Source: a virus (taxonomy: Duplodnaviria; Heunggongvirae; Uroviricota; Caudoviricetes). Taken from it: a DNA stretch of 64,000 nucleotides. How positions within the stretch are numbered: position 1 is the first letter of the stretch; each line of letters begins with the position of its first letter. Below are positions 27,797 to 48,331 of this stretch, in pieces. The notes under the pieces are model-generated. The model was not told the origin of the DNA and did no database searches. It worked only from the letters and a program-made list of their open reading frames with translations. The position numbers were made by a program, and so were the translations under genes. The stretch is taken from positions 10,382-74,381 of IMG/VR virus record IMGVR_UViG_3300021255_001482; one strand, 5' to 3'.

Positions 27797-27824
27797 TAGT
27801 AATTGCCCGTGAAAGCGGGCATGC

Positions 27825-27913
27825 GTCCGTATACTCAAGTGGCTGAAGAGATTTGTCTTGAAAACAAAGAGGCCGTGATGAGCGGCGCGAGGGTTCGAAT
27901 CCTTCTACGGACG
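27825..27913 (+). tRNA. tRNA-Ser (anticodon TGA), type II.
   Basis: Acceptor GTCCGTA/TACGGAC, 3-bp D stem, anticodon loop CTTGAAA, long variable arm, T-arm GAGGG-TTCGAAT-CCTTC, discriminator G, encoded CCA. Confidence 0.6.
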
Positions 27914-27920
27914 CCAATAT

Positions 27921-27992
27921 GTGGTCGGTAGTTTAACGGTAAAACTCCTGGTTGTGGCCCGGGTAATGCAGGTTCGACTCCTGTCCTTCCAT
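27921..27992 (+). tRNA. tRNA-His (GTG) candidate with an imperfect acceptor stem.
   Basis: G-1, D stem GTTT/AAAC, anticodon arm CCTGG-TTGTGGC-CCGGG, T-arm GCAGG-TTCGACT-CCTGT, CCA encoded. There are two central acceptor mismatches. Confidence 0.35.
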
Positions 27993-27996
27993 CCAT

Positions 27997-28070
27997 GTCC
28001 CACTGGCGGAATTGGCATACGCGCTAGATTAAGGTTCTAGTTTCTCCGAGTTCAAATCTCGGGTGGGATA
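27997..28070 (+). tRNA. Class-I tRNA with anticodon AAG (Leu-type anticodon), atypical.
   Basis: Acceptor GTCCCAC/GTGGGAT, anticodon arm CTAGA-TTAAGGT-TCTAG, T-arm CCGAG-TTCAAAT-CTCGG, A73, CCA encoded. The short variable arm is unusual for Leu. Confidence 0.35.
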
Positions 28071-28074
28071 CCAT

Positions 28075-28103
28075 TTGACTTCTTACATAAATTCTGATAT
28101 AAT
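28075..28103 (+). promoter_or_regulatory. Conserved promoter driving the ncRNA leader + tRNA-Val transcript.
   Basis: TTGACTTCTTACATAAATTCTGATATAATATTTATAG. Confidence 0.55.
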
Positions 28104-28326
28104 ATTTATAGAAAGAACGGAATCCACCCGATATGGCTGTGGCTACAAGGTGCGGAAGGGTGGCGGTAGTATTACGCCTCAATTGGCGAAACGATATGCC
28201 AATTGAGGATGAAATAAAGCATAATAACGCAAGAGAGTAATACATGACGTAAGTATTTAATTGATAGAGAATGTAGCCGTGCTTCTGGCGGTGCGTTACC
28301 GACATACTTATGGACGCCAGATTTAT
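28104..28326 (+). ncRNA. Promoter-driven structured leader RNA upstream of tRNA-Val (unclassified).
   Basis: There is no ORF. It begins just downstream of the promoter at 28075-28103. It contains a perfect 11-bp hairpin CCTCAATTGGC/GCCAATTGAGG and a CCACCC...GGGTGG helix. Confidence 0.35.
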
Positions 28327-28399
28327 GGAGGATTGACGCAATTGGGAGCGTGTTTCCCTTACAAGGAAAAAGTTGGCGGTTCGAGTCCGTCATCCTCTA
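28327..28399 (+). tRNA. tRNA-Val (TAC).
   Basis: Acceptor GGAGGAT/ATCCTCT, D stem ACGC/GCGT, anticodon arm TTTCC-CTTACAA-GGAAA, T-arm GGCGG-TTCGAGT-CCGTC, CCA encoded. Confidence 0.65.
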
Positions 28400-28402
28400 C
28401 CA

Positions 28403-28527
28403 AGACCCATACAGCAATTTACAAGCTGGACTGAAAATCCCGGCAACTGTTGGTTCGAATCCAACCTACCCCACCATTTATGGGGTAGTGGCGAAAGTGG
28501 CAAACGCACGTGAAAGACAGTGGGTCT
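28403..28527 (+). ncRNA. Y-RNA-like / permuted-tRNA-like module E1.
   Basis: Outer stem AGACCCA/TGGGTCT with box ACAGCAATT right after the 5' arm. Inside: T-arm GTTGG-TTCGAAT-CCAAC, acceptor-3' CTACCCC, A, CCA, linker TTTAT, acceptor-5' GGGGTAG, then D-arm-like GCG..GG..CGC. Confidence 0.45.
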
Positions 28528-28534
28528 AGATTAT

Positions 28535-28607
28535 GGCTAGGTAGCTCAGATGGTAGAGCGTTGGCCTGAAGAGCCAAGCGTCACTGGTTCAATTCCAGTC
28601 CTAGCCA
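28535..28607 (+). tRNA. tRNA-Phe (GAA).
   Basis: Acceptor GGCTAGG/CCTAGCC, D-arm TAGCTCAGATGGTAGAGC, anticodon loop CTGAAGA, T-arm ACTGG-TTCAATT-CCAGT, CCA encoded. Confidence 0.7.
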
Positions 28608-28624
28608 CCAATTCCGCATTGCGG

Positions 28625-28728
28625 TTAGGCACACACAGCAATTTTCTTATATGTAAATGTTGAATGATATAGAAAATTGAATCGCCAAATACTAAAGGCC
28701 GTCGTTATTAAGCAAAACGAGTGCCTAG
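28625..28728 (+). ncRNA. Hairpin module E2 with the conserved box.
   Basis: 5' arm TTAGGCAC plus box ACACAGCAATT. 3' arm GTGCCTA about 80 nt downstream. The interior is AT-rich with a D-arm-like GCC-AAATACTAAA-GGC. Confidence 0.4.
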
Positions 28729-28774
28729 AAAAAAAGTTGATACTTAATCAAGCTTTTAGTATTTGGTATTATCT

Positions 28775-28846
28775 GTCGGTATAGTTCAACGGATAGAACA
28801 TGACACTTCTAATGTCATTATCTGGGTTCAATTCCTAGTACCGACG
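28775..28846 (+). tRNA. tRNA-Arg (TCT).
   Basis: Acceptor GTCGGTA/TACCGAC, D stem GTTC/GAAC, anticodon arm TGACA-CTTCTAA-TGTCA, T-arm CTGGG-TTCAATT-CCTAG, CCA encoded. Confidence 0.65.
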
Positions 28847-28855
28847 CCATGTTAT

Positions 28856-28927
28856 GGGCTTATAGTATAGCGGCTAGTACATATGCTTTGCACGCATAAA
28901 ACTGGGGTTCGATTCCCCATAGGTCCA
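28856..28927 (+). tRNA. tRNA-Ala (TGC).
   Basis: Acceptor GGGCTTA/TAGGTCC (two G-U pairs), anticodon arm TATGC-TTTGCAC-GCATA, T-arm TGGGG-TTCGATT-CCCCA, CCA encoded. Confidence 0.55.
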
Positions 28928-29015
28928 CCAAGATGGAAGGTCGCCCCTTCCAAGGCTATAGTTCCTAACCTTGGTTTCTAAAACTTGCGAGGATAGAGAC
29001 CGAAAGAACTAATAT

Positions 29016-29089
29016 GTTCCACTAGCACAATTGGCTAATGCATCTGACTCTTAATCAGGGGAGTCTGGGTTCGAATCCCAGGTGGAGCA
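29016..29089 (+). tRNA. tRNA-Lys (CTT).
   Basis: Acceptor GTTCCAC/GTGGAGC, anticodon arm TCTGA-CTCTTAA-TCAGG, T-arm CTGGG-TTCGAAT-CCCAG, CCA encoded. Confidence 0.55.
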
Positions 29090-29194
29090 CCAGACGGTAC
29101 GAAAGCACGGCACCAAACCCAAAGCAGCGTCATGAACTGTACAGTGCCTTGTGTGTTTCCTATTTCCACAAGTAAAGCTAATAAAAATAGGTCG

Positions 29195-29271
29195 CGTGTT
29201 CGATTTATCTAACGGAGAGGATACGTGACTACGAACACGGCATAGGGGTTCGAATCCTCTATCGCATGCCA
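29195..29271 (+). ncRNA. tRNA 3'-half-like element (8-bp hairpin + T-arm + acceptor-3' + CCA) with no matching 5' half.
   Basis: Stem CGTGTTCG/CGAACACG, then AGGGG-TTCGAAT-CCTCT, ATCGCAT, G, CCA. No complementary acceptor 5' strand was found. Confidence 0.3.
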
Positions 29272-29278
29272 TTAATAT

Positions 29279-29368
29279 GCGGGAGTAAGCCTAATTGGTA
29301 AGGCAGTAGTTTGGAGAACTACCAGTAATCGAGTAATCGGTGTTAGAGTTCAAGTCTCTACTCTCGCG
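29279..29368 (+). tRNA. tRNA-Ser (GGA), type II.
   Basis: Acceptor GCGGGAG/CTCTCGC, anticodon arm GTAGT-TTGGAGA-ACTAC, 21-nt variable arm, T-arm TAGAG-TTCAAGT-CTCTA, CCA encoded. Confidence 0.6.
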
Positions 29369-29373
29369 CCACA

Positions 29374-29494
29374 TAGTCGCTCACAGCAATTGTTCTTTAT
29401 AGAACAAATGGGTTCGAATCCCATAGTATGCACAGCATATTTCGCCAAATGGTAAGGCAAACGTCTAATAAACGTTATTCTATTAAAGCGACTA
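29374..29494 (+). ncRNA. Y-RNA-like / permuted-tRNA-like module E3.
   Basis: Outer stem TAGTCGCT/AGCGACTA with box CACAGCAATT. Inside: T-arm ATGGG-TTCGAAT-CCCAT, acceptor-3' AGTATGC, A, CAG, acceptor-5' GCATATT, D-arm GCC-AAATGGTAA-GGC, then an anticodon-arm-like AACGT-CTAATAA-ACGTT. Confidence 0.45.
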
Positions 29495-29500
29495 GTATTT

Positions 29501-29572
29501 GCCCTGATAGGCTAATGGATAGACCTTCGCGCTACGGACGCGACAGTGGGGGTTCGAATCCCTCTCGGGGTG
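29501..29572 (+). tRNA. tRNA-Arg (ACG).
   Basis: Acceptor GCCCTGA/TCGGGGT, anticodon arm TCGCG-CTACGGA-CGCGA, T-arm GGGGG-TTCGAAT-CCCTC, CCA encoded. Confidence 0.6.
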
Positions 29573-29580
29573 CCATTTAT

Positions 29581-29665
29581 GGGAGATTAAAGTGATAAAG
29601 TAGACACGCAGGTCTGTAAAACCTGTCCTTTCGAGGTCGAGTGGGTGCGATTCCCTCATCTCCCA
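29581..29665 (+). tRNA. tRNA-Tyr (GTA), type II.
   Basis: Acceptor GGGAGAT/ATCTCCC, anticodon arm CAGGT-CTGTAAA-ACCTG, long variable arm. Length 85. The T-stem is imperfect by eye. CCA is encoded. Confidence 0.5.
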
Positions 29666-29672
29666 CCATAAC

Positions 29673-29736
29673 TAGACACGCACAGCAATTACTTCTACTA
29701 TTAGCGCCATTCATGCTAGAATTAGAATGTGTCTAG
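29673..29736 (+). ncRNA. Hairpin module E4 with the conserved box.
   Basis: CTAGACAC plus GCACAGCAATT, with 3' arm GTGTCTAG. It sits between tRNA-Tyr and tRNA-Trp. Confidence 0.4.
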
Positions 29737-29740
29737 ATTT

Positions 29741-29811
29741 AGGAGCTTAGTGTAATGGTAGCATACCGGTCTCCAACACCGTTGGTGAGGGTTCAAATCC
29801 TTCAACTCCTG
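29741..29811 (+). tRNA. tRNA-Trp (CCA).
   Basis: Acceptor AGGAGCT/AACTCCT (one C-A mismatch), D stem GTGT/ATAC, anticodon loop CTCCAAC, T-arm GAGGG-TTCAAAT-CCTTC, CCA encoded. Confidence 0.5.
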
Positions 29812-29815
29812 CCAT

Positions 29816-29886
29816 GCCAAATTAGTTTAATGGTAAAACAGAAGTTTCGTAAACTTCCATTATTAGTTCGATTCTAATATTTGGCT
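29816..29886 (+). tRNA. tRNA-Thr (CGT).
   Basis: Acceptor GCCAAAT/ATTTGGC, D stem GTTT/AAAC, anticodon arm GAAGT-TTCGTAA-ACTTC, T-arm ATTAG-TTCGATT-CTAAT, CCA encoded. Confidence 0.6.
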
Positions 29887-29890
29887 CCAT

Positions 29891-29919
29891 TTGACTTTTA
29901 GTATAATTTCTGTTATAAT
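29891..29919 (+). promoter_or_regulatory. Conserved promoter driving a 320-nt ncRNA + tRNA-Ile.
   Basis: TTGACTTTTAGTATAATTTCTGTTATAATTATTATG. Confidence 0.55.
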
Positions 29920-30241
29920 TATTATGTAAGGTTGAGATAGGAAATAATAACAGCTGATAAAATTCCATTCTTTATGCGGAAAGTGGGGCCGCAAACCTTA
30001 CATCAATTCCCGCTGGGTACGAGTAACAGCGTCGTAGAAACATAAGCCGGTGCATCGACTTATGTAGGTATGTACGTGAACCATACCAAATAAACCGAGT
30101 GTCTAGGGACGAACTACACATCCTTAGCCGAAACGCACAAAAACTTGCGCCAAGTGTAGTGGTAGCTATTGGGGACTGGATAGAAACCAATAGGAAGAAG
30201 CAAGTTGCTGGTTTTACATCCCTGCGGTTTACCAGCTATTT
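29920..30241 (+). ncRNA. Roughly 320-nt promoter-driven ORF-free structured RNA upstream of tRNA-Ile (unclassified).
   Basis: It starts about 25 nt after the promoter at 29891-29919. No ORF of 60 aa or more is present. GC-richer helices (GCGGAAAGTGGGGCCGC, ATAAGCCGGTG) are present. Confidence 0.35.
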
Positions 30242-30315
30242 CGAGCAGTAGCACAGTTGGTTAGTGCAATCGGCTGATAACCGATAGATCATAGGTTCAA
30301 GTCCTATCTGCTCGA
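30242..30315 (+). tRNA. tRNA-Ile (GAT).
   Basis: Acceptor CGAGCAG/CTGCTCG, D stem GCAC/GTGC, anticodon arm ATCGG-CTGATAA-CCGAT, T-arm ATAGG-TTCAAGT-CCTAT, CCA encoded. Confidence 0.65.
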
Positions 30316-30318
30316 CCA

Positions 30319-30746
30319 ATAAGGTTCACCCTGTAATCCTCCTTAATCGCGAAAGGGAAAAGGGCCTGTTGCAGCTAATAGTATGAGAATAGTAGAGCTT
30401 GTACTATGTATTTGCAGTATGTAAATGCCGGGAGTTCTCTTGCCCCGTTAAGGTAGTCCGGAATACACACAAGATTCGCTCGGTAACTAGATTTATCGTT
30501 ATTAACGAGTCTAGCGGAAGTCGTCCTCGTTAGTGGTGGCCACGAATCCGTGCGTGAATAATAGGCGGTGAGGTCTCAGATGGAGAGTATCTACCAATAA
30601 GAGCAAATGATACACAAATATTTCTTGGAGTATACACAACGCGAGTGTTAACTCCTTTACAATGTTCCTCGCGGTGAAATCAAATGGAGGCTCGGATGGA
30701 TTGAGGCCCGGAAGATGCCAATAGGAGAAGAAACCGCGAGATTTAT
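30319..30746 (+). ncRNA. Roughly 430-nt ORF-free structured region between tRNA-Ile(GAT) and the interrupted tRNA-Ile(TAT).
   Basis: There is no ORF on either strand. Many local helices are visible. Function unknown. Confidence 0.3.
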
Positions 30747-30894
30747 CGGGAACTAGCTCAGTAGGTCAGAGCAGCGGCCTTCACGAAGTACAATCAAGTA
30801 GATGGTCTGACACCACTCAGGCGGGTGATGGGTTCAAGTCCCTCCTTCGTGACCAATAAGCCGTGTGTCCTGGGTTCGAGTCCCAGGTTCCCGA
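30747..30894 (+). tRNA. Interrupted tRNA. Removing a 74-nt tRNA-like insert (30782-30855) from the anticodon loop gives tRNA-Ile (anticodon TAT, loop CTTATAA).
   Basis: Acceptor CGGGAAC/GTTCCCG, D-arm GCTC-AGTAGGTCA-GAGC, anticodon stem GCGGC/GCCGT, T-arm CTGGG-TTCGAGT-CCCAG, A73, CCA. The insert is itself tRNA-like (CACGAAG...CTTCGTG-A-CCA with a TTCAAGT loop). Confidence 0.5.
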
Positions 30895-30923
30895 CCAACT
30901 ATTTGTTAAGGAGAACATAATAA

Positions 30924-31070
30924 ATGACACTTAAAGACTTTTATAATTGGATGCGTATGAATAATTTTGAAAACTTTAATCTTTTAATAAAAGATGATGA
31001 TAGTGTTTGGGATATTGATGAATGTATGATCAATATTAATTTAAAAAATAAAGAAATTATTATTAGTTAA
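30924..31070 (+). CDS. Small hypothetical protein (48 aa).
   Basis: It has a TAAGGAGAACATAATAA RBS. Confidence 0.3.
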   Translation: MTLKDFYNWMRMNNFENFNLLIKDDDSVWDIDECMININLKNKEIIIS

Positions 31071-31079
31071 AGGATAAAA

Positions 31080-31238
31080 ATGAATAAGTATAAATTTGGT
31101 CGTCTTACTTTTGGAACTATTCTTATAGTAGTAATGTTTAGTAATGGTTTTAAAATTAATACTTGGCAATTTTGGGTAGTTTATATTTCTGCTTGGATGA
31201 TGGCTTTTATGACTTTTTTGGAGGATTTTAGTGGATGA
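31080..31238 (+). CDS. Small membrane protein (52 aa).
   Basis: It has an AAGGATAAAA RBS and a hydrophobic core. Confidence 0.3.
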   Translation: MNKYKFGRLTFGTILIVVMFSNGFKINTWQFWVVYISAWMMAFMTFLEDFSG

Positions 31239-31382
31239 TGAAACTCTTTTATGCTTTTATCGCAGCCTTGAATCTTTTTTATTTTTATACTTTTCAAGAT
31301 AATGCTATATGGATGCGTGGTCTTAGTTTAGCATGTTGCCTTTTAATGAGCTTGTGTACAATAGTTGAAGCAACAAAATAAT
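31235..31382 (+). CDS. Small membrane protein (48 aa).
   Basis: It shows ATGA stop-start coupling and is hydrophobic. Confidence 0.3.
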
Positions 31383-31520
31383 GCGTCATTGCCAAATTAA
31401 TAAATAAAGTATTCGCGCTAGTGGGAGAATGGTTATCCGGAAGTCTGCAAAACTTCACAAGCCAGTTCAATTCTGGCCTAGCGCTCCACAACAATATAAA
31501 AGGAGTAAAAGGAGAAAAGT

Positions 31521-32495
31521 ATGTTTGGTCTAATTTTAGCTATTGTTGTTATTATTGCTGGTTTTATCGTAGCAAATGTAATGTTTCCAGATGTAACAAA
31601 GCGTAATGGTGACACGAAAAGTAGGAGTTCAATTCGCACAATTATTCGTGCCGTTGCCTTCATTATTGCCGCAGGATTAATTATTCTGTCTTGTATTTCT
31701 TATGTACCAACTGGTTATACTGGAATTGTAACAACTTTTGGTAAGGTACACGAGCACACGCTTGACGCAGGTATTAATTTCCATGCGCCTTGGGACAATG
31801 TAATTACTATGGATAATCGTGAACAGCGCGCAACTTTCCAACTAGAAGCATTTTCAAAGGATATTCAGCAAGTAGATATTCAAGGCTCTATCAACTATAA
31901 TATTGATAAACTAACCGCTATGAATCTATATAAGGACGTAGGCACTGGATATGTCAATATTCTAATTGGCCCTCGTATTCAGGAAGATGTAAAGATTGTT
32001 GTTGCTCGTTATACTGCTGAAAATCTAATTGCTAGTCGTCAAGAAGCAGCTAATGCTATTGAGACTCTTATTCGTGATGAATTAACTTCAAAGGGTATTA
32101 ATGTAATTTCTCTTGCAGTAGAAAATATTGACTTTACTGATGCTTTTGAATCTGCCGTTGAAGCAAAGCAAGTTGCTACGCAAGAAAAGCAGCGTGCCCA
32201 GACCCAGCAAGAACAGGCAACAATGGAGGCAGAGCAGGCCGCAAAGCGCAAGAAGATTGAAGCAGAAGCAGCGGCCGAAGTGGCAAAGGTGCAAGCAGAC
32301 GCCGATGCATATTCTACACAGGTAAAGGCGGCCGCGGAAGCAGAAGCTAATGAAAAAATTAATAAGTCTCTAACTGAAGAACTTGTAAATTATCGTCAAA
32401 TCCAGCGCTGGAATGGAGAACTCCCTCAATTTGTTGGCGGCGGTTCCACTATTCCTATCTTAAACATGGATAAAACTACCGAAACTACAGATTAA
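31521..32495 (+). CDS. SPFH/band-7 (prohibitin/HflK-like) membrane protein.
   Basis: It has an N-terminal TM, then the SPFH core (YVPTGYTGIVTTFGKV...), then an Ala/Glu/Gln-rich coiled-coil. A terminator follows at 32511-32534. Confidence 0.6.
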   Translation: MFGLILAIVVIIAGFIVANVMFPDVTKRNGDTKSRSSIRTIIRAVAFIIAAGLIILSCISYVPTGYTGIVTTFGKVHEHTLDAGINFHAPWDNVITMDNREQRATFQLEAFSKDIQQVDIQGSINYNIDKLTAMNLYKDVGTGYVNILIGPRIQEDVKIVVARYTAENLIASRQEAANAIETLIRDELTSKGINVISLAVENIDFTDAFESAVEAKQVATQEKQRAQTQQEQATMEAEQAAKRKKIEAEAAAEVAKVQADADAYSTQVKAAAEAEANEKINKSLTEELVNYRQIQRWNGELPQFVGGGSTIPILNMDKTTETTD

Positions 32496-32510
32496 TATAA
32501 ATACTTATAA

Positions 32511-32534
32511 CGCACGGGAAACCGTGCGTTTTTT
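32511..32534 (+). terminator. Rho-independent terminator.
   Basis: CGCACGGGAAACCGTGCG followed by TTTTTTCT. Confidence 0.6.
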
Positions 32535-33757: not shown

Positions 33758-33948
33758 AATTTATCTATGATGATAATCTATATGACGCGATGAAAGACGT
33801 ATATGATTATGCTTATCGCGTTTTCTTTGGAAAGGCTCCAATAGATGTTATTTATCGTATGAACCGTGGCTGTAAAGGCGCGGAGCAAAAAGTCCTACAA
33901 TACATTTGGGATACCTATATTGAACCGAAAGGAGAAGAAAATGAGTAA
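33754..33948 (+). CDS. Small hypothetical protein.
   Basis: It shows ATGA coupling. Confidence 0.4.
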   Translation: MKFIYDDNLYDAMKDVYDYAYRVFFGKAPIDVIYRMNRGCKGAEQKVLQYIWDTYIEPKGEENE

Positions 33949-34531
33949 TATTTACTTTACAAGCGACACTCATTTTTCACATAATCGTGGCTTTCTTTAT
34001 GAGCCACGAGGGTTTTCTTCTATTGAAGAACATGATGAAACTATTATAGAAAATTGGAATAAAGTGGTAAAACCAGAGGATGTAATTTATCTTCTTGGCG
34101 ATGCTATGCTAAATGATAATGATAAGGGCATCCAATGTTTAAACAAGCTTAATGGCCGAATCTTATTTATTCGCGGTAATCATGATAGCAATGAGCGCAT
34201 TTATCGTATTTACCATGAATGCCCAAATATTCTTTTTGTAGAGAATGGCTCAGAAAATTTCTGTACAGTTGCCGCAGTTAAAAAGTTCAATGGTTATAAT
34301 GTATACTTATCGCATTATCCAACTTACACCAGTTATATTGAGAATATGGCACCGTTAAAGAAGCATATGTTGAACTTCCATGGCCATACTCACTCAAAAG
34401 ATAAGTTTTATCAAGACATTCCTTTTATGTATAATGTAGCACTTGACGCACATAACAATGCACCAGTGTCCTTTGATGAAATTATTTCAGATATTGAAGC
34501 AAAAGCAAATGAATGTATTGCTATGCTATAA
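33941..34531 (+). CDS. Calcineurin-like metallophosphoesterase.
   Basis: It has the motifs IYFTSDTHFSH, LLGDAM.ND, RGNHD and HGHTH. The RBS is AAAGGAGAAGAAA. Confidence 0.65.
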   Translation: MSNIYFTSDTHFSHNRGFLYEPRGFSSIEEHDETIIENWNKVVKPEDVIYLLGDAMLNDNDKGIQCLNKLNGRILFIRGNHDSNERIYRIYHECPNILFVENGSENFCTVAAVKKFNGYNVYLSHYPTYTSYIENMAPLKKHMLNFHGHTHSKDKFYQDIPFMYNVALDAHNNAPVSFDEIISDIEAKANECIAML

Positions 34532-34720: not shown

Positions 34721-34721
34721 T

Positions 34722-35470: not shown

Positions 35471-37006
35471 ATGTCTATGAATCGTCTTTACAATGCTATG
35501 GCTTCTCAGAACACCTACAAGACCACTGAAAATGGTGCTGTTGCGCGCACCACGACCAGCTCTAAGCTATATGACCTATTCTCTTTCGGTGCGGCTTATC
35601 GTCAGCGTACCGAGAGTGATTGCGTGCTCCTATTTAAGGAGGCATATAAGGAAAGCCCTATGTATGCCCTAAAGTGCCTGTTCTATATCCGTGACATTCG
35701 CGGCGGACAGGGTGAACGTCGTTTTTTCCGCACTTGCCTGCATTGGCTTGCGGATTATGACCGCAACGCAGTACTACGCAATCTTGACCAGATTGCTGAG
35801 TATGGCCGCTGGGACGACCTATATGCTCTCGTAGGAACTTCCTGCGAGCATGAGGCTCTATATGCTCTTGGTAAGCAGCTTGCCCTTGACTACAAGACCA
35901 AGGGTGCTATTTCCCTTGCCGGTAAGTGGGCGGCTTCCGAGAACGCTTCTTCTGCCAAGACTAAGCGTTATGGACGTCTAACTGCCCACGCTATGGGTCT
36001 AACCTCTCGTCAGTACCGTGTACTGCTTTCTAACCTTCGTGAGCGTATTCGCGTGCTGGAGCGCCTTATGTCCGCAAATCGGTGGAATGAGATTGAATTT
36101 GACAAGATTCCTTCTCGTGCCGGCCTGATTTATAAGAATGCTTTTGCTCGTCGCGATCTAATCAAGGCGAAGTATGAAGCGTTTGCCAAGGATACCTCTA
36201 CCAAGGTTAACGCAGCCGCGCTATATCCTTATGATGTGGTTGCTAAGGCCATTAAGCTTATGGGTTCAAACTATAGCTGGTATGGCCGTGGCAGTAATGT
36301 CGCCCTTGACAACACCGATCGCCTGATGATTAACAAGTATTGGGAGAATCTAACTGATTATTTCCATGGCATGTCTCTGAATGCCCTTGTTGTCGCCGAT
36401 ACAAGTGGAAGTATGACGAGCGGTGCTGGTAGCGTTGCTCCTATTGATGTCGCAGTCTCTCTTGCTCTTTATGCCGCAGAGCGTAATAAGGGGCCTTTCG
36501 CGAACTCTTACATTAGCTTCAGCCGCACGGCGAAGTTTGTTGAGACTCGCGGCGTAGACTTCTGCGACAAGGTTGACCGCATCGTAAAGACGAACCTTTG
36601 CGAAAATACCAATCTACAGTCTGTATTTGACCTTGTGCTAAATACTGCTATTCGGAATTATCTGCGTCAGGAAGATATGCCTGAAACCATTGTCATTATC
36701 AGTGACATGGAAGTAGACGGTATGCAGGGATACTCCTCTTGGAGGGGCGATGCTCCTGGTATGAAGGGTGTTCAGACCTTTATGGATAAGATCCGTAATA
36801 CTTGGTCTTTTCATGGCTATAAGCTACCTAAGCTAGTTCTGTGGAACGTAAATGCCCGTAACAACACCGTGCTTGATGCTGGCCCTGACGTTTCTTGCGT
36901 GAGTGGCTGCTCTCCTGTCATTTTTGAAATGGTTATGTCTGGAAAGACTGGCTATGATCTAATGATGGACAAGCTTAACAGCTCTCGATACGCGGCCATC
37001 AAGTAA
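35471..37006 (+). CDS. Ro60/Rsr-like (TROVE-like helical N-domain + C-terminal vWA with MIDAS) protein. DUF2828-type.
   Basis: The N-terminal box TENGAVARTTTSSKLYDLFSFG...SPMYALKCLFYIRD aligns with the Ro60 N-terminal box (qDGyVwqvTdmnRLhRFLcFG...ePMLFALAIC). The MIDAS-like motif VVADTSGSM sits at about residue 310. It follows the promoter at 35376-35404. A terminator follows at 37023-37054. Confidence 0.5.
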   Translation: MSMNRLYNAMASQNTYKTTENGAVARTTTSSKLYDLFSFGAAYRQRTESDCVLLFKEAYKESPMYALKCLFYIRDIRGGQGERRFFRTCLHWLADYDRNAVLRNLDQIAEYGRWDDLYALVGTSCEHEALYALGKQLALDYKTKGAISLAGKWAASENASSAKTKRYGRLTAHAMGLTSRQYRVLLSNLRERIRVLERLMSANRWNEIEFDKIPSRAGLIYKNAFARRDLIKAKYEAFAKDTSTKVNAAALYPYDVVAKAIKLMGSNYSWYGRGSNVALDNTDRLMINKYWENLTDYFHGMSLNALVVADTSGSMTSGAGSVAPIDVAVSLALYAAERNKGPFANSYISFSRTAKFVETRGVDFCDKVDRIVKTNLCENTNLQSVFDLVLNTAIRNYLRQEDMPETIVIISDMEVDGMQGYSSWRGDAPGMKGVQTFMDKIRNTWSFHGYKLPKLVLWNVNARNNTVLDAGPDVSCVSGCSPVIFEMVMSGKTGYDLMMDKLNSSRYAAIK

Positions 37007-44501: not shown

Positions 44502-45041
44502 ATGAGTGACGTAAGACTAAAGATTCTACCGCCTTGGACTATCGTTATTCGTAAGTTTGAGGCATTATTTGACGGTGACCCACAGATTGCTTGTAATTGT
44601 AATTTCGCAGGCTCTAATCCTTCCATTGTATTAGCTTGTAATAATGGTGATAAGGTCACTGCCCTACAACAGATTCTTCCTTCTGAAATCAGTTTTGGTA
44701 ATATCAAGCTAAGGATTGAGGTTGATGGTATTCCTTCTAACCGTGCTTTTACTAGTAAGGTAGAACTATTTGATACCGCTTTTAAGGGTAATCCTGCTTA
44801 TGCCTACGCTGTGTGTCCTGCTGAAGAAGGCTATCAGTGGATTGGAACTACTTATGTAGTATTTAATAATTGCGTAGTACAGTTCGCGGCAGATAATCTA
44901 AACGATTGTCACGGCATTATTAGTACTCTATATGAGACTATTGCCGACGAGCTTCTAACTGGCCCCGCTACTGAAGGCGTATTTTATAATACAAATGTAG
45001 AGCGTGCAGGGCTTGGGAAGCCCCTAGGCGAGTGGCCATAA
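44502..45041 (+). CDS. Hypothetical protein.
   Basis: It has an AAAGGAGAAAGCAAAA RBS. Confidence 0.5.
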   Translation: MSDVRLKILPPWTIVIRKFEALFDGDPQIACNCNFAGSNPSIVLACNNGDKVTALQQILPSEISFGNIKLRIEVDGIPSNRAFTSKVELFDTAFKGNPAYAYAVCPAEEGYQWIGTTYVVFNNCVVQFAADNLNDCHGIISTLYETIADELLTGPATEGVFYNTNVERAGLGKPLGEWP

Positions 45042-45054
45042 GCCACTCTAATTT

Positions 45055-45127
45055 GGGCCTATAGTTCAGCGGCTAGAATGTCCGGTTGTCTCCCGGAAGA
45101 TCGCAGGTTCGAATCCTGTTAGGCTCG
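45055..45127 (+). tRNA. tRNA-Asp (GTC).
   Basis: Acceptor GGGCCTA/TAGGCTC, anticodon arm TCCGG-TTGTCTC-CCGGA, T-arm GCAGG-TTCGAAT-CCTGT, CCA encoded. Confidence 0.6.
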
Positions 45128-45130
45128 CCA

Positions 45131-45247
45131 TAGACTCATCCAGCAATTCTTTTTGCGCTGTAGGAGCCGGTAGTATTGGTTCAAATCCAGTTCTCCTCGC
45201 CATATGAGGAGATAGTGTAATGGATAGCACGCCGTAAAATGAGTCTA
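45131..45247 (+). ncRNA. Y-RNA-like / permuted-tRNA-like module E6.
   Basis: Outer stem TAGACTCAT/ATGAGTCTA with box CCAGCAATT. Inside: T-arm ATTGG-TTCAAAT-CCAGT, acceptor-3' TCTCCTC, G, CCA, linker TAT, acceptor-5' GAGGAGA, D-arm GTGT-AATGGATA-GCAC. Confidence 0.45.
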
Positions 45248-45253
45248 GTATTT

Positions 45254-45327
45254 CGGAGTGTGGCTCAGTTTGGTAGAGCGGGTGGTTTGGGACCATCAGG
45301 TCGGGGGTTCAAATCCCTCCACTCCGA
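45254..45327 (+). tRNA. tRNA-Pro (TGG).
   Basis: Acceptor CGGAGTG/CACTCCG, D-arm GCTC-AGTTTGGTAG-AGC, anticodon arm GGTGG-TTTGGGA-CCATC, T-arm GGGGG-TTCAAAT-CCCTC, CCA encoded. Confidence 0.6.
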
Positions 45328-45387
45328 CCATAAACAACTGGGTTTGAAGATTATCCCAACCGTAAAATCTTCCCCTTTCTCTCTCTC

Positions 45388-45416
45388 TTGACTTTTTCTA
45401 GAATTTTTGATATAAT
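45388..45416 (+). promoter_or_regulatory. Conserved promoter family member.
   Basis: TTGACTTTTTCTAGAATTTTTGATATAATAAATATAT. Confidence 0.55.
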
Positions 45417-45444
45417 AAATATATCAAAGGAAAGGAAAAATAAT

Positions 45445-45672
45445 ATGGATAAGAAAGAATTGTCCGCGCAAGCAACCAAGGCTGAATTTGTTAAGTCAAT
45501 TCATCATTGGCTTATGAATACCCTCAAGCAGAATGGTAAAGAAGAATATAGTGATTGCTTTACTATTGAAGGTTCTAGCATTATGTGCCAACTGCCCGCG
45601 GATTATTTTAATCTATACTCTATTCCCGCAAACACCAAAATCGAAATGAAATTTATTTCTAAGAAATCTTAA
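45445..45672 (+). CDS. Small hypothetical protein.
   Basis: It follows the promoter at 45388-45416. There is an AAAGGAAAGGAAAAATAAT RBS before ATG 45445. Confidence 0.45.
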   Translation: MDKKELSAQATKAEFVKSIHHWLMNTLKQNGKEEYSDCFTIEGSSIMCQLPADYFNLYSIPANTKIEMKFISKKS

Positions 45673-45676
45673 AATT

Positions 45677-45777
45677 TAAGCCGTCACAGCAATCTTTTTA
45701 AGTGGTTAATTTATTTTGATTGAGAAGCAAAATGATAGATGGTTCGAACCCATCACAATTAAACAATTAACGGCTTA
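45677..45777 (+). ncRNA. Hairpin module E7 with box CACAGCAATC and an internal T-arm-like GATGG-TTCGAAC-CCATC.
   Basis: Arms TAAGCCGT/ACGGCTTA. Confidence 0.4.
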
Positions 45778-45794
45778 GTATTATTGTTACAAGT

Positions 45795-45872
45795 AAGGCA
45801 CCTACAGCAATTACTTTTATAATTACAAAATATAGATATTGGCAGTATATTAAAGTAAATTATTAGTGCCTT
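45795..45872 (+). ncRNA. Hairpin module E8 with box CTACAGCAATT.
   Basis: Arms AAGGCAC/GTGCCTT. It lies immediately upstream of tRNA-Thr. Confidence 0.4.
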
Positions 45873-45880
45873 GAATTTAT

Positions 45881-45952
45881 GCCGGTGTGGCGCAACGGTA
45901 GCGCAATCGCCTTGTAAGCGATAGGTTGTGGGTCCGATTCCCTCCACCGGCT
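45881..45952 (+). tRNA. tRNA-Thr (TGT).
   Basis: Acceptor GCCGGTG/CACCGGC, anticodon arm ATCGC-CTTGTAA-GCGAT, T-loop TCCGATT, CCA encoded. Confidence 0.55.
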
Positions 45953-45974
45953 CCACTTTTAAAAGGAGTTTATT

Positions 45975-46391
45975 ATGGGATTTTTCACTAAAAAGAAAAC
46001 AGTTGCAGAACCGTCTAAACCTATTGAGAAAAAGTGCGAACATAAATTTCAAGATTTTCCTTGGTTTTTAACTTGGGATTTACAGTATAATCATTATACT
46101 ATTAAAGTAATTGAACCCTATGTTTGTATCTTTTGCGGCGAAAGGAAAAATAAAGTTCTTGCATCTTACACGGGCACAAACTGTAATGAAGGCGAAAAAC
46201 TTCTTAATCAACTCAGAAATCGCTTTGATAATCATATCAAATATCAAGAAGAAGTAGAAGATATGATAAATGACATGGTTCTAGTAGACCCTGAATATTT
46301 AAAATGGTATCATTTACTACGCGAGCAACAAGACCCTTCTACCTCGCGGCCGCAAGCCGAATTTAATAAGAAACCAGAATTAAAGCTATGA
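45975..46391 (+). CDS. Hypothetical protein with a C-x2-C pair.
   Basis: It has an AAAAGGAGTTTATT RBS. Confidence 0.5.
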   Translation: MGFFTKKKTVAEPSKPIEKKCEHKFQDFPWFLTWDLQYNHYTIKVIEPYVCIFCGERKNKVLASYTGTNCNEGEKLLNQLRNRFDNHIKYQEEVEDMINDMVLVDPEYLKWYHLLREQQDPSTSRPQAEFNKKPELKL

Positions 46392-46396
46392 TAAAT

Positions 46397-46510
46397 AGGC
46401 ACACACAGCAACTTGCATAGTCAATCTATGTGTCATCGGTTCGAGTCCGATTATGCCATCCAGAATCTGGCGTATCACCCAGTTGGTAGGGTAATAGAAA
46501 AATGTGCCTA
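46397..46510 (+). ncRNA. Y-RNA-like / permuted-tRNA-like module E9.
   Basis: Outer stem TAGGCAC/GTGCCTA with box ACACAGCAACT. Inside: hairpin CATAG-TCAAT-CTATG, T-arm ATCGG-TTCGAGT-CCGAT, acceptor-3' TATGCCA, T, CCA, linker GAATC, acceptor-5' TGGCGTA, D-arm ACCC-AGTTGGTA-GGGT. Confidence 0.45.
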
Positions 46511-46524
46511 GATGAAAGGATTTT

Positions 46525-46971
46525 ATGAAGATTTATATTTCCTATTTTGCTCAAATTCGTAATTTCCCGCCCAATTTGGTCGGGCTTTCTACTGCGGTTT
46601 GGAATCCAAAATGGCTCCAGAAAGGAAGAAGTCAAAATGGAATTATTTGGTTAGATATTCCGCCGCTAAAACCCGGAAAGAATTGTGATGGATTATGTAA
46701 TGGCAAATGTTCTCCTAAACATCCAAATGATTGTGAGTTCTTACGCGAATATAAAAATCAGCTAGATAAGATAGATTTCAATATGCTGATGGAGCACCTG
46801 CAAGTATTAAATGAAACTATAAAAGTTGGAGAACAATTTGATGATGTAGATTTTGCGTTGTTAGTTTATGAAAAATATGATAATATTTGTTCTGAACGAT
46901 GGCCTCTTATTCAGTGGTTTAAAGAGCATGGTATGGAGTTAGAAGAATGGCAATTAGACAAAAACCGATAA
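46525..46971 (+). CDS. Hypothetical protein.
   Basis: It has a GAAAGGATTTT RBS. Confidence 0.5.
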   Translation: MKIYISYFAQIRNFPPNLVGLSTAVWNPKWLQKGRSQNGIIWLDIPPLKPGKNCDGLCNGKCSPKHPNDCEFLREYKNQLDKIDFNMLMEHLQVLNETIKVGEQFDDVDFALLVYEKYDNICSERWPLIQWFKEHGMELEEWQLDKNR

Positions 46972-47225
46972 CTACAGAAAAAGAATTTTGTGAATTAATA
47001 AGAGAAATAGATCCTCATGAGCGCGGTGAAACTTTATACATTCAATGGAATCCAAATTATGAAGCAAATGATGAAAATTGGCCACGGGTAGAATTACTAG
47101 AAAACTTTCTTTGGATTCATACTGACCCAAATGATTCTTGGTGGTATATTGAAAATGGAGATGCCCGTGCTTGGAAAATGTTTCCTAATTTTGAAGAAAG
47201 ACAACTACCTTGGGGACTAACCTAA
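46947..47225 (+). CDS. Hypothetical Trp-rich protein. Its 3' end overlaps tRNA-Gln.
   Basis: It overlaps the upstream gene by 25 nt. The stop codon lies inside the D-arm of the tRNA at 47211. Confidence 0.45.
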   Translation: MAIRQKPITTEKEFCELIREIDPHERGETLYIQWNPNYEANDENWPRVELLENFLWIHTDPNDSWWYIENGDARAWKMFPNFEERQLPWGLT

Positions 47226-47281
47226 TGGAAGGGTCTTCGGCTCTGACCCGAAGTGTGATAGTTCAATTCTATCGTCCCCAG
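47211..47281 (+). tRNA. tRNA-Gln (CTG).
   Basis: Acceptor TGGGGAC/GTCCCCA, D stem ACCT/GGGT, anticodon arm TTCGG-CTCTGAC-CCGAA, T-arm GATAG-TTCAATT-CTATC, CCA encoded. Confidence 0.55.
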
Positions 47282-47287
47282 CCATAT

Positions 47288-47360
47288 GGGAGTGTAGCTC
47301 AGTAGGAAGAGCACTAGACTTTTAATCTAGGCGTCGAGGGTTCGATTCCCTCCACTCTCA
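47288..47360 (+). tRNA. tRNA-Lys (TTT).
   Basis: Acceptor GGGAGTG/CACTCTC, D-arm TAGCTCAGTAGGAAGAGC, anticodon arm CTAGA-CTTTTAA-TCTAG, T-arm GAGGG-TTCGATT-CCCTC, CCA encoded. Confidence 0.7.
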
Positions 47361-47371
47361 CCAAATATTAT

Positions 47372-47458
47372 GCGGTATTAGCGTAGAGGCCGAACGCGGG
47401 AGTTTGCTAAACTCTGCCGACCTTAGATGGTCCGAAGGTTCGAATCCTTCATACCGCG
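47372..47458 (+). tRNA. tRNA-Ser (GCT), type II.
   Basis: Acceptor GCGGTAT/ATACCGC, anticodon arm GGAGT-TTGCTAA-ACTCT, long variable arm, T-arm GAAGG-TTCGAAT-CCTTC, CCA encoded. Confidence 0.6.
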
Positions 47459-47620
47459 CCAGGGAAGCCATTAAACCGACGTGTTAGTATCAGCTGCTAC
47501 GGCACCAGTAGGTGAAACCGTATTGCAAAAATGATGGTAAGGCACTTCCTACCAATTGTGGACTGTTGGCTTAGAAGCAGCCATCAGCTAAGGAGTTCTA
47601 AGTTCTTCCGCGGGTGCGAA

Positions 47621-47722
47621 ATGTATCAAAAGGCTACGATTGTGGAACGCCCTTTTGAGTATGATGTGCCTGCGGATAATGGGAACATGAGATTTGGCGT
47701 AAAAGCACACCACAAATATTGA
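47621..47722 (+). CDS. Putative 33-aa peptide.
   Basis: There is a CTAAGGAG RBS before ATG 47621. It is embedded in otherwise non-coding RNA-island sequence. Confidence 0.2.
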   Translation: MYQKATIVERPFEYDVPADNGNMRFGVKAHHKY

Positions 47723-47833
47723 GCTGGCCAGAGTAGTGTGCAGAAAGCTCATTAAACACGGGGTTACTACATAGCTCATCTGCCATGTGTAGAAGGAGCG
47801 GAAAAATCGCTTTGCGATTTTGCTAAATGCGGT

Positions 47834-47938
47834 GGCGGAATAGGTAAACGCTACACGTAAGATATTGGAATCGTCGCTGAAAAAGTGCTGGCATTTTGGA
47901 AACAATATCATGTAAGGTGCAAATCCTTACCCGCATTA
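47834..47938 (+). ncRNA. tRNA-derived element without CCA. Its D-arm is paralogous to tRNA-Leu 42215.
   Basis: GCGG-AATAGGTAAA-CGC D-arm, T-arm TAAGG-TGCAAAT-CCTTA, acceptor-like TGCGG/CCGCA. No encoded CCA, unlike all bona fide tRNAs here. Confidence 0.25.
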
Positions 47939-48010
47939 AATAGACTTGCCCGCGCCTCTGATTCAAGCGTACCTGGGGAGCACGCGGCCACAGCGGTTAA
48001 AGTGGCTTAT

Positions 48011-48081
48011 GCGCCATTGGTGTAACGGTAACATATTAGCCTTCCAAGCTGAGGTTGTGGGTTCAAGTCCCATATGGCGCT
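48011..48081 (+). tRNA. tRNA-Gly (TCC).
   Basis: Acceptor GCGCCAT/ATGGCGC, anticodon arm TTAGC-CTTCCAA-GCTGA, T-arm GTGGG-TTCAAGT-CCCAT, CCA encoded. Confidence 0.6.
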
Positions 48082-48092
48082 CCAGGATGCTT

Positions 48093-48164
48093 TAGACAGA
48101 TTCAGCAATTATTTTCACTTGCTATTGTGATATTAGGATTCATCCACCTAATAAAAACTGTCTA
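48093..48164 (+). ncRNA. Hairpin module E10 with box TTCAGCAATT.
   Basis: Arms TAGACAG/CTGTCTA. It sits between tRNA-Gly and tRNA-Gln. Confidence 0.4.
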
Positions 48165-48170
48165 GTTTTT

Positions 48171-48241
48171 AGCCCCTTAGCGTAACGGCAGCGCGCTGGA
48201 CTTTGACTCCATATGTGTTGGTTCGATTCCAACAGGGGCTG
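48171..48241 (+). tRNA. tRNA-Gln (TTG).
   Basis: Acceptor AGCCCCT/AGGGGCT, anticodon stem TGGA/TCCA with loop CTTTGAC, T-arm GTTGG-TTCGATT-CCAAC, CCA encoded. Confidence 0.5.
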
Positions 48242-48248
48242 CCAATTT

Positions 48249-48315
48249 TAGACGCCATTGCGCCGAAACAACAGCAATTATTTTTCAGCTCCATTTTTAT
48301 TCTATAAGGCGTCTA
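48249..48315 (+). ncRNA. Hairpin module E11 with box ACAGCAATT.
   Basis: Arms TAGACGCC/GGCGTCTA. It is followed directly by the RBS of CDS 48332. Confidence 0.4.
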
Positions 48316-48331
48316 GTTTTGAGGTGGAATT

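Follow-up and report, generated by a model that had tools for sequence, protein, structure and literature searches.

From bacteria to humans, particles of Ro60 and Y RNA have been conserved. As an autoantigen, Ro60 is of major importance in lupus and Sjögren syndrome; the role of the particles in bacteria and phages is poorly understood. The question raised by the locus described here is whether a phage that encodes a Ro60-like protein also encodes the RNAs that go with it. The locus lies in a 64,000-nt stretch of a Caudoviricetes virus (IMG/VR record IMGVR_UViG_3300021255_001482, positions 10,382 to 74,381), which we call the window. The gene for the Ro60-like protein stands between two blocks of tRNA genes, and eleven intergenic elements (E1–E11, Table 1) are interspersed in the same region. 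A preliminary description, read by eye from the sequence, had likened these elements to the YrlA-type Y RNAs of bacteria; all eleven are present where it placed them, on the + strand, with coordinates that we have refined. Judged by their sequences, all eleven elements encode small structured non-coding RNAs that belong to a single family, and we consider it likely that these RNAs act in trans and are coupled to the Ro60-like protein (DUF2828/DUF7788) in a Y-RNA-like system. Their particular function is far less certain than this coupling.

A family with a closing stem and an ACAGCAA box

RNAfold closes each of the eleven elements with an outer stem of 6–9 bp, as the preliminary description had it, and ten of them give z-scores of −2.5 to −5.2 against dinucleotide shuffles, the exception being E8 at −1.1. 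The sequence ACAGCAAYT occurs eight times on the + strand of the window, against 1.5 expected. In ten elements this box, taken as CAGCAAYY, starts at position 10–12, which agrees with its earlier placement just 3' of the 5' arm of the stem, whereas in E11 it starts at position 24. The box is single-stranded in the minimum-free-energy folds of most window elements.

Related loci were gathered through the DUF2828 protein, 80 from viral contigs and 41 from genome collections. From an unguided MAFFT alignment of 22 tRNA-like copies (four from the window and 18 from relatives) RNAalifold returns exactly four helices: the outer stem, a T-arm, an acceptor and a D-arm. The order of T-arm, acceptor and D-arm that had been read by eye in four window elements is thereby recovered, and covariation of the outer and acceptor stems is borne out, with compensatory changes at 20 of the 21 base pairs. 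The proportion of cells that are paired is 95.2%, compared to 68.2% in column shuffles (0 of 500 shuffles reach the observed value) and at most 42% when the partners are slid. From the same alignment we built a covariance model, R1; among its 150 best matches 92.5% of cells are paired (66% in shuffles), and the outer 8-bp stem covaries at all eight pairs.

Run unfiltered over the whole window, R1 scores the four training copies at 75–99 bits and recovers six elements that were not used in training (E2, E4, E5, E7, E8 and E10), full-length and on the + strand, at 30–37 bits (E = 3e-5 to 4e-4). The elements therefore align as a family under a covariance model, with E11 marginal (15 bits, E = 0.48). 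The only other matches in the window are weak ones at adjacent tRNA–tRNA junctions, as expected from their natural likeness to a T-arm/acceptor/acceptor/D-arm series. Applied to 1.1 Mb of related DNA, R1 finds 194 matches (E ≤ 0.01), every one of them on the strand of the DUF2828 gene, and two other scans of related DNA gave 137 and 64 matches, again all on the strand of the Ro60-like gene. E11, with its displaced box, is probably a divergent member of the family. It is also the only element with the sequence GCCGAAA (48264–48270) between the 5' arm and the ACAGCAA box; this is like the CGAA core of canonical Y RNA motifs, perhaps by chance.

Across the family the 5' end reads W-A-G-R-C-N-C-N-N-A-CAGCAA-Y-Y, with A at the second position in 122 of 124 copies, and the 3' end reads ...G-Y-C-U-W-G, with U in 122 of 127 and the last G in 124 of 127. 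These ends make up a constant module: a terminal stem in which 5' W-A-G-R-C-N... pairs with ...N-G-Y-C-U, an unpaired, near-invariant G after the 3' arm, and the single-stranded box (A)CAGCAAYY at a fixed 1–3 nt past the 5' arm. In a test that does not presuppose the stem and counts Watson-Crick pairs only, a stem of at least 8 bp was found at 18.8% of CAGCAAY sites on the + strand, compared to 0.8% of those on the − strand and 2% for positions taken at random; a scan permitting G-U pairs, with a background of 48% of random positions, was dropped. With Rfam, whether at gathering thresholds or at E ≤ 10, the only match to any element was a weak one of YrlA at E9, and the elements are therefore not a described family.

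The elements have terminal inverted repeats with TAG...CTA ends and many copies per genome, and the permuted tRNA-like core that some of them contain (below) resembles the junction of two tandem tRNA copies, as the weak R1 matches at tRNA–tRNA junctions also illustrate. They might on these grounds be taken for repeats at the level of DNA, either miniature inverted-repeat mobile elements or debris of tandem tRNA duplication, with no function as RNA. However, the arms covary instead of keeping one sequence, the interiors are unrelated between copies, all 194 matches are co-directional with transcription, and the asymmetric box keeps a fixed distance from the stem. The elements are also kept beside one gene family in phages that range from those of Firmicutes to those of Actinobacteria, Campylobacter and E. 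coli. We regard an origin as functionless DNA repeats as scarcely credible; the tRNA-like cores themselves may have arisen by tandem duplication.

A Ro60-like protein and the elements beside its gene

The product of the Ro60-like gene matches only DUF2828 and DUF7788 in Pfam, and TROVE (PF05731) is not among its matches; sequence and profile searches against PDB chains gave no match. We built an AlphaFold2 model from 34 homologues (predicted local distance difference test score, pLDDT, 80.6), in which a helical-repeat N-terminal part is predicted to be followed by a C-terminal vWA domain. The top ten PDB matches of this model in Foldseek are all Ro60, Rsr or TROVE proteins, and each match is full-length, with E-values of 2e-8 to 4e-5. 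They include Deinococcus Rsr (2NVO), Xenopus and human Ro60, and phiRo60 of Thermus phage phiLo (9KOP), which is the best match with 16% identity in the structural alignment; isolated vWA domains trail in the list (E > 0.01). The MIDAS motif (for metal-ion-dependent adhesion site) D310-x-S312-x-S314 in the vWA domain is invariant. By its modelled structure the protein is Ro60-like as a fold, not as a Pfam family, so the earlier label of a TROVE plus vWA protein holds in the first sense and fails in the second. We propose that it is the protein partner of the elements. Homologues with DUF2828 occur in at least 704 deposited phage records, and the carriers include Felix O1-like, P100-like and KVP40-like phages and many mycobacteriophages. 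A literature search on DUF2828 found nothing relevant.

The coupling is suggested mainly by where the elements lie. We counted strict elements (those with the box and a Watson-Crick stem no shorter than 7 bp) around the DUF2828 gene in the 57 loci with full flanks. On the gene strand, 54 lie less than 1 kb upstream of the gene, 25 between 1 and 2 kb upstream, and 15 within 1 kb downstream; on the opposite strand there are 0–3 per bin, and none within 1 kb upstream. In phages whose protein is 35–40% identical, short versions of 50–75 nt are arranged in tandem directly before or after the gene. Scanning viral contigs with the DNA pattern AAGACN{3,6}ACAGCAATT gave 120 stretches, mostly chance occurrences that need a closing-stem filter: of 14 loci with an element closed by a stem, 5 have a DUF2828 gene at a distance of 100–600 nt, compared to 2 of 106 for stemless ones. 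In isolate genomes of Thermoactinomyces, Halobacillus and Enterococcus the elements are immediately upstream of the DUF2828 gene, and the Thermoactinomyces and Enterococcus loci have no tRNA genes. Because elements accompany the gene in these two tRNA-free loci, the association is with the gene and not with tRNA arrays.

Elements were found in all five deposited phages of the set examined. In Listeria phage CKA15 a promoter precedes three copies in tandem, close upstream of CKA15_055 (OR088597.1, about 25,287–25,555), and Campylobacter phage F360 has two copies upstream of its DUF2828 gene. Three copies are downstream of the gene in Staphylococcus phage S-CoN_Ph13, and in Mycobacterium phage Lolly9 three tandem copies follow the 'Ro-like RNA binding protein' gene, one of them tRNA-like and scoring 84.6 bits although its G+C content is 58%. 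The Felix-O1-like Escherichia phage REP7 (locus L247) has its copies within a tRNA array. There, an annotated 'tRNA-Thr_GGT' of 131 nt (L247 6321–6451; OQ174506.1 26414–26544) overlaps a tRNA-like element (6371–6504, R1 50.4 bits) and is probably a misannotation. Near its homologue, Aeromonas phage Aeh1 has no convincing box-stem element.

tRNA parts, packing between tRNA genes, and the surrounding locus

Four window elements (E1, E3, E6 and E9) contain a tRNA-like core consisting of a T-arm (5 bp, loop UUCRANY), a 7-bp acceptor hairpin, U8-N9, and a D-arm with GG; the other seven lack it. The CCA or CAG reported at the acceptor end is present as N-CCA opening the acceptor loop in E1, E6 and E9, and is missing from E3, which has an ACA triloop instead. 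E1 runs from an anticodon-like hairpin (loop CUGAAAA) through the T-arm and an acceptor hairpin with A-CCA in its loop to U8 and the D-arm, and is the only element with all four tRNA arms. In E3 the order is a tetraloop hairpin, T-arm, acceptor hairpin, D-arm, and an anticodon-like hairpin (loop CUAAUAA). E6 has the box CCAGCAAUU, T-arm, a G-CCA acceptor hairpin and D-arm, and E9 has a hairpin, T-arm, a U-CCA acceptor hairpin and D-arm. An anticodon arm had been said to be absent from these structures; this holds for the window elements other than E1 and E3. The remaining modules had been called minimal hairpins, correctly except for E7 with its lone T-arm; E2, for example, has the stem UAGGCAC/GUGCCUA, the box ACAGCAAUU, and an AU-rich interior with a D-arm-like remnant.

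The same variety is seen across the family, where the interior can be a permuted tRNA core, an anticodon arm plus T-arm, a T-arm alone, a whole small cloverleaf, a lone anticodon-like hairpin, or AU-rich hairpins. Among 45 parsed tRNA-like copies, U8 is present in 42, and the acceptor loop begins with N-CCA in 15 (1.6% by chance); the other 30 are closed without CCA, many by loops of 3–6 nt. Anticodon-like hairpins, which we define as a 5-bp stem with a 7-nt YU-NNN-RN loop (mostly CU-NNN-AA), number 42 in 40 of 127 elements, compared to 3.6 ± 1.8 in dinucleotide shuffles, and UUU is their commonest 'anticodon'.

The permuted order had also been read as circularly permuted tRNA genes. In such a reading E1, E3, E6 and E9 would mature into functional tRNAs, as in Cyanidioschyzon merolae: a 3' half (T-arm, acceptor 3' strand, N-CCA) precedes a linker and a 5' half (acceptor 5' strand, U8, D-arm), E1 has a hairpin with a GAA anticodon-like sequence, and the phage encodes an RNA ligase. 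However, most copies lack a properly placed anticodon arm, two-thirds of the parsed copies lack CCA, and the closing stem and box are also present on the seven window copies that have no tRNA core. No bulge-helix-bulge junction was seen in the window elements and, to our knowledge, the splicing endonuclease is absent from bacteria. As had been remarked, ordinary annotation does not account for the elements: ARAGORN and the Rfam tRNA model (RF00005) call none of the eleven, and E9 scores 14.7 bits with the latter. Maturation into tRNAs is thus extremely improbable.

Could the variable modules instead be stand-alone decoys or sponges for host nucleases that target tRNAs, or for tRNA-binding factors, with the Ro60-like protein a mere neighbor? 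CU-NNN-AA loop mimics in about one-third of elements, about 12-fold over shuffles and with UUU the commonest, would fit such a role, as would a setting of phage tRNA arrays and RNA-repair genes. This leaves unexplained why the invariant stem and ACAGCAA are present on copies both with and without tRNA parts, and why synteny with the DUF2828 gene is tight across phyla; moreover, in the window only E1 and E3 have anticodon-like hairpins. We consider a decoy role independent of the protein very unlikely.

The elements are packed closely between tRNA genes. The distance from the 3' end of a preceding tRNA to the start of an element peaks at 0–3 nt, and that from the 3' end of an element to the next tRNA peaks at 4–9 nt (77 of 277). 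In the window, tight packing is seen at E1, E3, E4, E5, E6, E8 and E10. E1–E4 belong to one promoter-to-promoter run with 12 tRNA genes called by ARAGORN and one tRNA-Tyr-like gene; from the promoter that heads this run (28075) to the next (29891) there is no terminator on the + strand, and no + strand terminator-like site coincides with the elements or falls between elements and tRNAs. We rejected the elements as intrinsic terminators, since terminator-like sites are elsewhere and the arms of the elements are 50–110 nt apart. The simplest reading of the packing, we infer, is co-transcription followed by release through tRNA processing, so that the elements are probably excised from tRNA transcripts.

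Packing this tight and regular would also suit cis-acting parts of a transcript: hairpins that guide or protect the processing of tRNA precursors (by RNase III, E or Y, or as a helper of RNase P), or sites in untranslated regions (UTRs) that control the Ro-like gene. E5 is at a predicted transcription start, and many copies are in the position of a 5' or 3' UTR of the DUF2828 gene. However, elements stand beside the gene in the tRNA-free loci L227 and L233, and are therefore not in themselves signals for tRNA processing. A leader would hardly be expected to have as many as three tandem copies of diverse sequence in one UTR, or copies far from the gene between coding sequences (CDSs), such as E9. 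tRNA-like and anticodon-like modules with a conserved U8, GG and T-loop would serve no purpose in a simple processing hairpin, and an autoregulatory site in a UTR would itself imply that the protein binds the box-stem. A purely cis-acting role is, in our view, improbable.

Several points weigh against RNAs that act in trans with the Ro60-like protein. That the elements are expressed, where their RNAs end, how they are processed, that the protein binds them and what they do, we infer throughout. The sets of elements were partly chosen for possessing the stem. The window protein has just 10–16% identity to Ro60 structures, with TM-scores of 0.42–0.54. The window elements are 5.7–11.2 kb from the gene, though on the same strand, compared to a criterion of 4 kb for YrlA, and synteny would fit a cis-regulatory or processing role too. 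A few anticodon-like hairpins in long matches may belong to a neighboring real tRNA; at least 12 are in elements shorter than 85 nt and are therefore not part of an adjacent tRNA. Lastly, the gathering threshold of the Rfam YrlA model (RF02553), 69 bits, is not reached in the window, where E9 is the sole match at 31.3 bits, and a regular-expression search found the YrlA motif GNCGAAN0-1G in the 5' region of none of the eleven elements. For these two reasons the analogy to Ro60 and Y RNA is structural and positional only.

If the elements are indeed trans-acting partners of the Ro60-like protein, the system might work as follows. The RNAs would be co-transcribed with tRNAs from strong sigma-70-like phage promoters, the 5' end of an element would be set by 3' maturation of the preceding tRNA, and the RNase P cut at the next tRNA would leave a tail of about 6–8 nt past the invariant G. 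The constant module would be bound by the Ro60-like protein, in the way that the stem and the GNCGAA/CGAA loop of bacterial and phage Y RNAs are bound by Ro60, and the tRNA-part module would recruit or distract enzymes that bind tRNA, for example RNase P, the CCA-adding enzyme, PNPase, RNA ligase or anticodon nucleases of the host. The outcome would be tRNA or RNA quality control, repair or counter-defence, alongside the RNA ligase, cREC and phosphoesterase genes. A more specific version, which we offer tentatively and think rather unlikely, is that phages of at least four bacterial phyla use the stem and ACAGCAA handle to load the DUF2828 protein with mimics of tRNA parts against host defences that target tRNAs. 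The mimics, either elbow plus acceptor-CCA or anticodon stem-loops (for example UUU), would be made in bulk from tRNA operons, and would serve as decoys, sensors or tethers that hand damaged tRNAs or their attackers to the ligase, cREC and phosphatase set. If true, this version would give Y RNAs a defined role in phage–host conflict and account for a protein whose annotation in over 700 phage genomes goes no further than 'Ro-like RNA-binding'.

We found no description in the literature of a partner RNA for the DUF2828 'Ro-like RNA-binding proteins'. The elements are a concrete candidate for it: a short RNA handle with an invariant ACAGCAA box that is easily mutated, in tractable phages. They would also mean that what look like 'spacers' in phage tRNA arrays contain genes of a second class, assembled from tRNA parts and with anticodon-loop mimics among them, which bears on why phages keep tRNA arrays and how they resist defences that cleave tRNAs.

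The window belongs to a large phage genome, from a sample of gut or rumen type. All genes in the window are on the + strand, and its 20-kb region has no close relative by megablast against INPHARED, the sole match being a 33-nt stretch of tRNA. ARAGORN finds 29 tRNA genes in two blocks between 27825 and 48244 (Table 1). The genes between the two blocks read as an RNA-repair cluster, in which the calcineurin-like metallophosphoesterase is a candidate RNA end-healing phosphatase. They include a protein with a cREC_REC domain, a family described previously (PMC7824862). Nine near-consensus TTGACT-17-TATAAT promoters are scattered through the tRNA and element region, preceding small open reading frames (ORFs), a ROOL RNA, E5 and runs of tRNAs, and are often followed by TATAGAAA and a Shine-Dalgarno-like GGAAAGGA. 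E5 starts about 8 nt past the −10 box of one of them, at the predicted transcription start.

Table 1. Elements, genes and other features of the window discussed in the text.
Feature	Position	Strand	Class or annotation	R1 (bits)	z	Setting
E1	28403–28529	+	tRNA-like	85.6	−2.9	starts at 3' end of tRNA-Val; 5 nt before tRNA-Phe
E2	28626–28728	+	minimal	30.5 (untrained)	−3.4	
E3	29374–29495	+	tRNA-like	75.5	−5.2	between tRNA-Ser and tRNA-Arg
E4	29672–29736	+	minimal	34.5 (untrained)	−3.2	between tRNA-Tyr-like gene and tRNA-Trp; orthologues in L001, L002, L007
E5	42665–42732	+	minimal	30.5 (untrained)	−3.0	3' end 5 nt from tRNA-Leu(UAG)
E6	45131–45248	+	tRNA-like	87	−3.9	between tRNA-Asp and tRNA-Pro
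E7	45677–45778	+	box-stem with lone T-arm (GAUGGUUCGAACCCAUC)	34.8 (untrained)	−2.5	
E8	45795–45873	+	minimal, AU-rich interior; weakest fold of the set	36.2 (untrained)	−1.1	3' end 7 nt from tRNA-Thr
E9	46396–46511	+	tRNA-like	98.9		between two CDSs
E10	48093–48165	+	minimal, box UCAGCAAUU	36.5 (untrained)	−3.1	between tRNA-Gly and tRNA-Gln
E11	48249–48316	+	stem UAGACGCC/GGCGUCUA; probable divergent member	15.1 (E = 0.48)	−2.7	
Ro60-like protein gene	35471–37006	+	Pfam DUF2828 + DUF7788; PHROG 850 'RNA-binding protein'			
Band_7/SPFH protein gene	31521–32495	+	Band_7/SPFH			inter-array gene block
Metallophosphoesterase gene	33866–34531	+	calcineurin-like			inter-array gene block
cREC_REC domain protein gene	37462–37818	+	cyclic-phosphate processing receiver			inter-array gene block
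RNA ligase gene	38049–38699	+	PF09414			inter-array gene block
Promoter heading the tRNA/E1–E4 run	28075–28103	+	near-consensus TTGACT-17-TATAAT			
Promoter of E5	42629–42657	+	TTGACT-17-TATAAT			
Nine promoters	28075, 29891, 40909, 41166, 41719, 42430, 42629, 43242, 45388	+	near-identical			
ROOL RNA	43300–43893	+	Rfam, 324 bits			behind its own consensus promoter, amid tRNA/element region
tRNA-Leu(UAA)-like gene	42215–42345	+	insertion in anticodon loop			
Probable tRNA-Tyr(GUA)	29581–29664	+	long variable arm			E4 directly 3'
Nested double tRNA-like structure	30740–30900	+				
Large ORF-free blocks	28110–28326, 29930–30240, 30320–30740, 39325–40199, 41860–42214, 42815–43240, 47462–48010					tRNA regions

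Some further features of the region are worth recording. ROOL RNAs are also found near the Ro-like gene and tRNA arrays in relatives (L023 2931–3555, L039 3151–3758, L050 3475–4063 and, in the CKA15 locus, L245 4470–5021). The tRNA-Leu(UAA)-like gene has an insertion of about 48 nt in its anticodon loop, too small to be a group I intron, in a phage with genes for RNA ligase, cREC and phosphatase; it scores 42.8 bits over 131 nt with the Rfam tRNA model, is not called by ARAGORN, and has a similar counterpart in a relative (L032 4536–4664). The probable tRNA-Tyr(GUA) is likewise missed by ARAGORN, and Rfam gives just a sub-threshold tRNA-Sec match (32.7 bits). The nested structure has T-arms GGUUCAAGUCC and GGUUCGAGUCC, together with two acceptor 3' strands that end in CCA, and one pair is nested inside the other; its tmRNA matches are weak (14 bits), and the same relative, L032, has a real tmRNA at 1032–1310. 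The ORF-free blocks have a G+C content above that of the coding parts, and several are just 3' of consensus promoters. They match no Rfam family and may encode further structured RNAs.

Comparison with Y RNAs and other small RNAs

The Y-RNA hallmark, a terminal stem beside a loop with a conserved motif, is present in the family. In YrlA (RF02553; PMC4201824) as in the elements, the 5' and 3' ends form the terminal stem, a conserved single-stranded motif is just 3' of its 5' strand, and the gene is on the same strand as a gene of Ro60 type, near which it lies in YrlA and, for the elements, in relatives (in the window the distance is 5.7–11.2 kb). The tRNA-like elements share with YrlA a closed-acceptor tRNA domain (T-arm, acceptor hairpin, D-arm, and the tertiary set of U8, GG and T-loop), and bacterial Y RNAs are likewise several and different per genome, with a tRNA-like one alongside simple hairpins. 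In Mycobacterium smegmatis, YrlA is cleaved by RNase P and gains a CCA end (PMC4201824). The 7-bp acceptor with CCA of the elements parallels this RNA, and RNase P may likewise cleave the acceptor loop of copies that combine a 7-bp acceptor with N-CCA. By analogy with Y RNAs, the box would contact the protein.

There are also clear differences. The motif is ACAGCAAYY in the elements and GNCGAAN0-1G in YrlA, whose P2 and P3 helices between the terminal stem and the tRNA core are missing from the elements; these have ahead of the T-arm a separate hairpin, sometimes anticodon-like, that YrlA does not. The partner of YrlA belongs to Pfam TROVE, and that proposed for the elements to DUF2828. Unlike YrlA, the elements number up to 11 per genome, are interleaved with tRNAs up to 11 kb from the protein gene, and in many cases have no tRNA core. 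Canonical-looking copies from seven related loci all fall short of the YrlA threshold, Lolly9 giving a partial match of 37.7 bits, and the only GNCGAAN0-1G in the window elements is in the D-arm of E1, at position 88. The YrlA-type architecture claimed in the preliminary description thus stands in E1, E3, E6 and E9 and in at least 45 copies in relatives, with support from covariation, but membership of RF02553 is not justified, since score and motif both fail. Our reading is that the elements form a new family of Y-RNA-like RNAs, specific to Ro60-like proteins of the DUF2828 type and characterized by the ACAGCAA handle, high copy number in tRNA operons, and modules made from tRNA parts. They are a candidate for a new Rfam family, with corrections to the annotation of the REP7 tRNA-Thr and of a CKA15 region discussed below.

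Two systems outside the Y RNAs share parts of this picture. The species 1 and 2 RNAs of phage T4 (rnaC and rnaD) are stable and are released by tRNA processing. As annotated, they are small RNAs inside a phage tRNA cluster, like the elements, and rnaC ends in a T-arm-like hairpin. We rejected them as members of the family, since they have no box, no matching closing stem and no R1 match; no Ro-like gene was seen in the T4 locus examined. In the permuted tRNA genes of C. merolae the 3' half comes first and the acceptor ends are joined by a short linker after CCA; they mature via a circular intermediate, with the splicing endonuclease acting at a bulge-helix-bulge junction. The tRNA-like elements resemble them in placing the 3' half before the 5' half, and an origin by tandem duplication is plausible for both. 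In the elements, unlike C. merolae, the junction is a conserved stem plus box that is also carried by RNAs without tRNA parts.

For the DUF2828 branch, the literature that we found holds only a guess, by the authors of a study of Listeria phage CKA15, that Y RNAs are encoded there. They reported that few parts of the genome are transcribed as strongly as the non-coding regions up to 2 kb upstream of the Ro-like gene, noted that CKA15_055 resembles Rsr, and guessed that the highly transcribed upstream regions are Y RNAs (PMC12282133). CKA15_055 is 36% identical to the window protein and lies downstream of a tRNA array, with RtcB and RNA ligase genes nearby. The region reported as most transcribed, 26,236–26,727, the only one with published coordinates, was suspected by the authors of containing a Y RNA or small ORFs (PMC12282133); we find it to be a sub-threshold ROOL-like RNA (90.1 bits; gathering threshold 99.1). 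That study defined no RNA, and the three box-stem elements found here are not described in it. Mass spectrometry of purified virions identified CKA15_055, at 57% sequence coverage (PMC12282133); the Ro-like protein, perhaps with its RNAs, may therefore be packaged in the particle and brought into the cell upon infection.

The closest precedent with experiments behind it is the Ro60 homologue of Thermus phage phiLo. It binds two Y-like RNAs encoded upstream of its gene, in which a stem of the 5' and 3' ends flanks a CGAA loop, and a complex of phiRo60 with the host PNPase has been shown experimentally (PMC12135203). The motif of these RNAs, Yrl1 and Yrl2, is CGAA where that of the elements is ACAGCAA, and neither a tRNA array nor permuted-tRNA or anticodon modules are reported for phiLo. 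What the two systems have in common is a phage protein with a Ro60 fold together with small RNAs that are closed by a stem and have a large loop with a short conserved motif.

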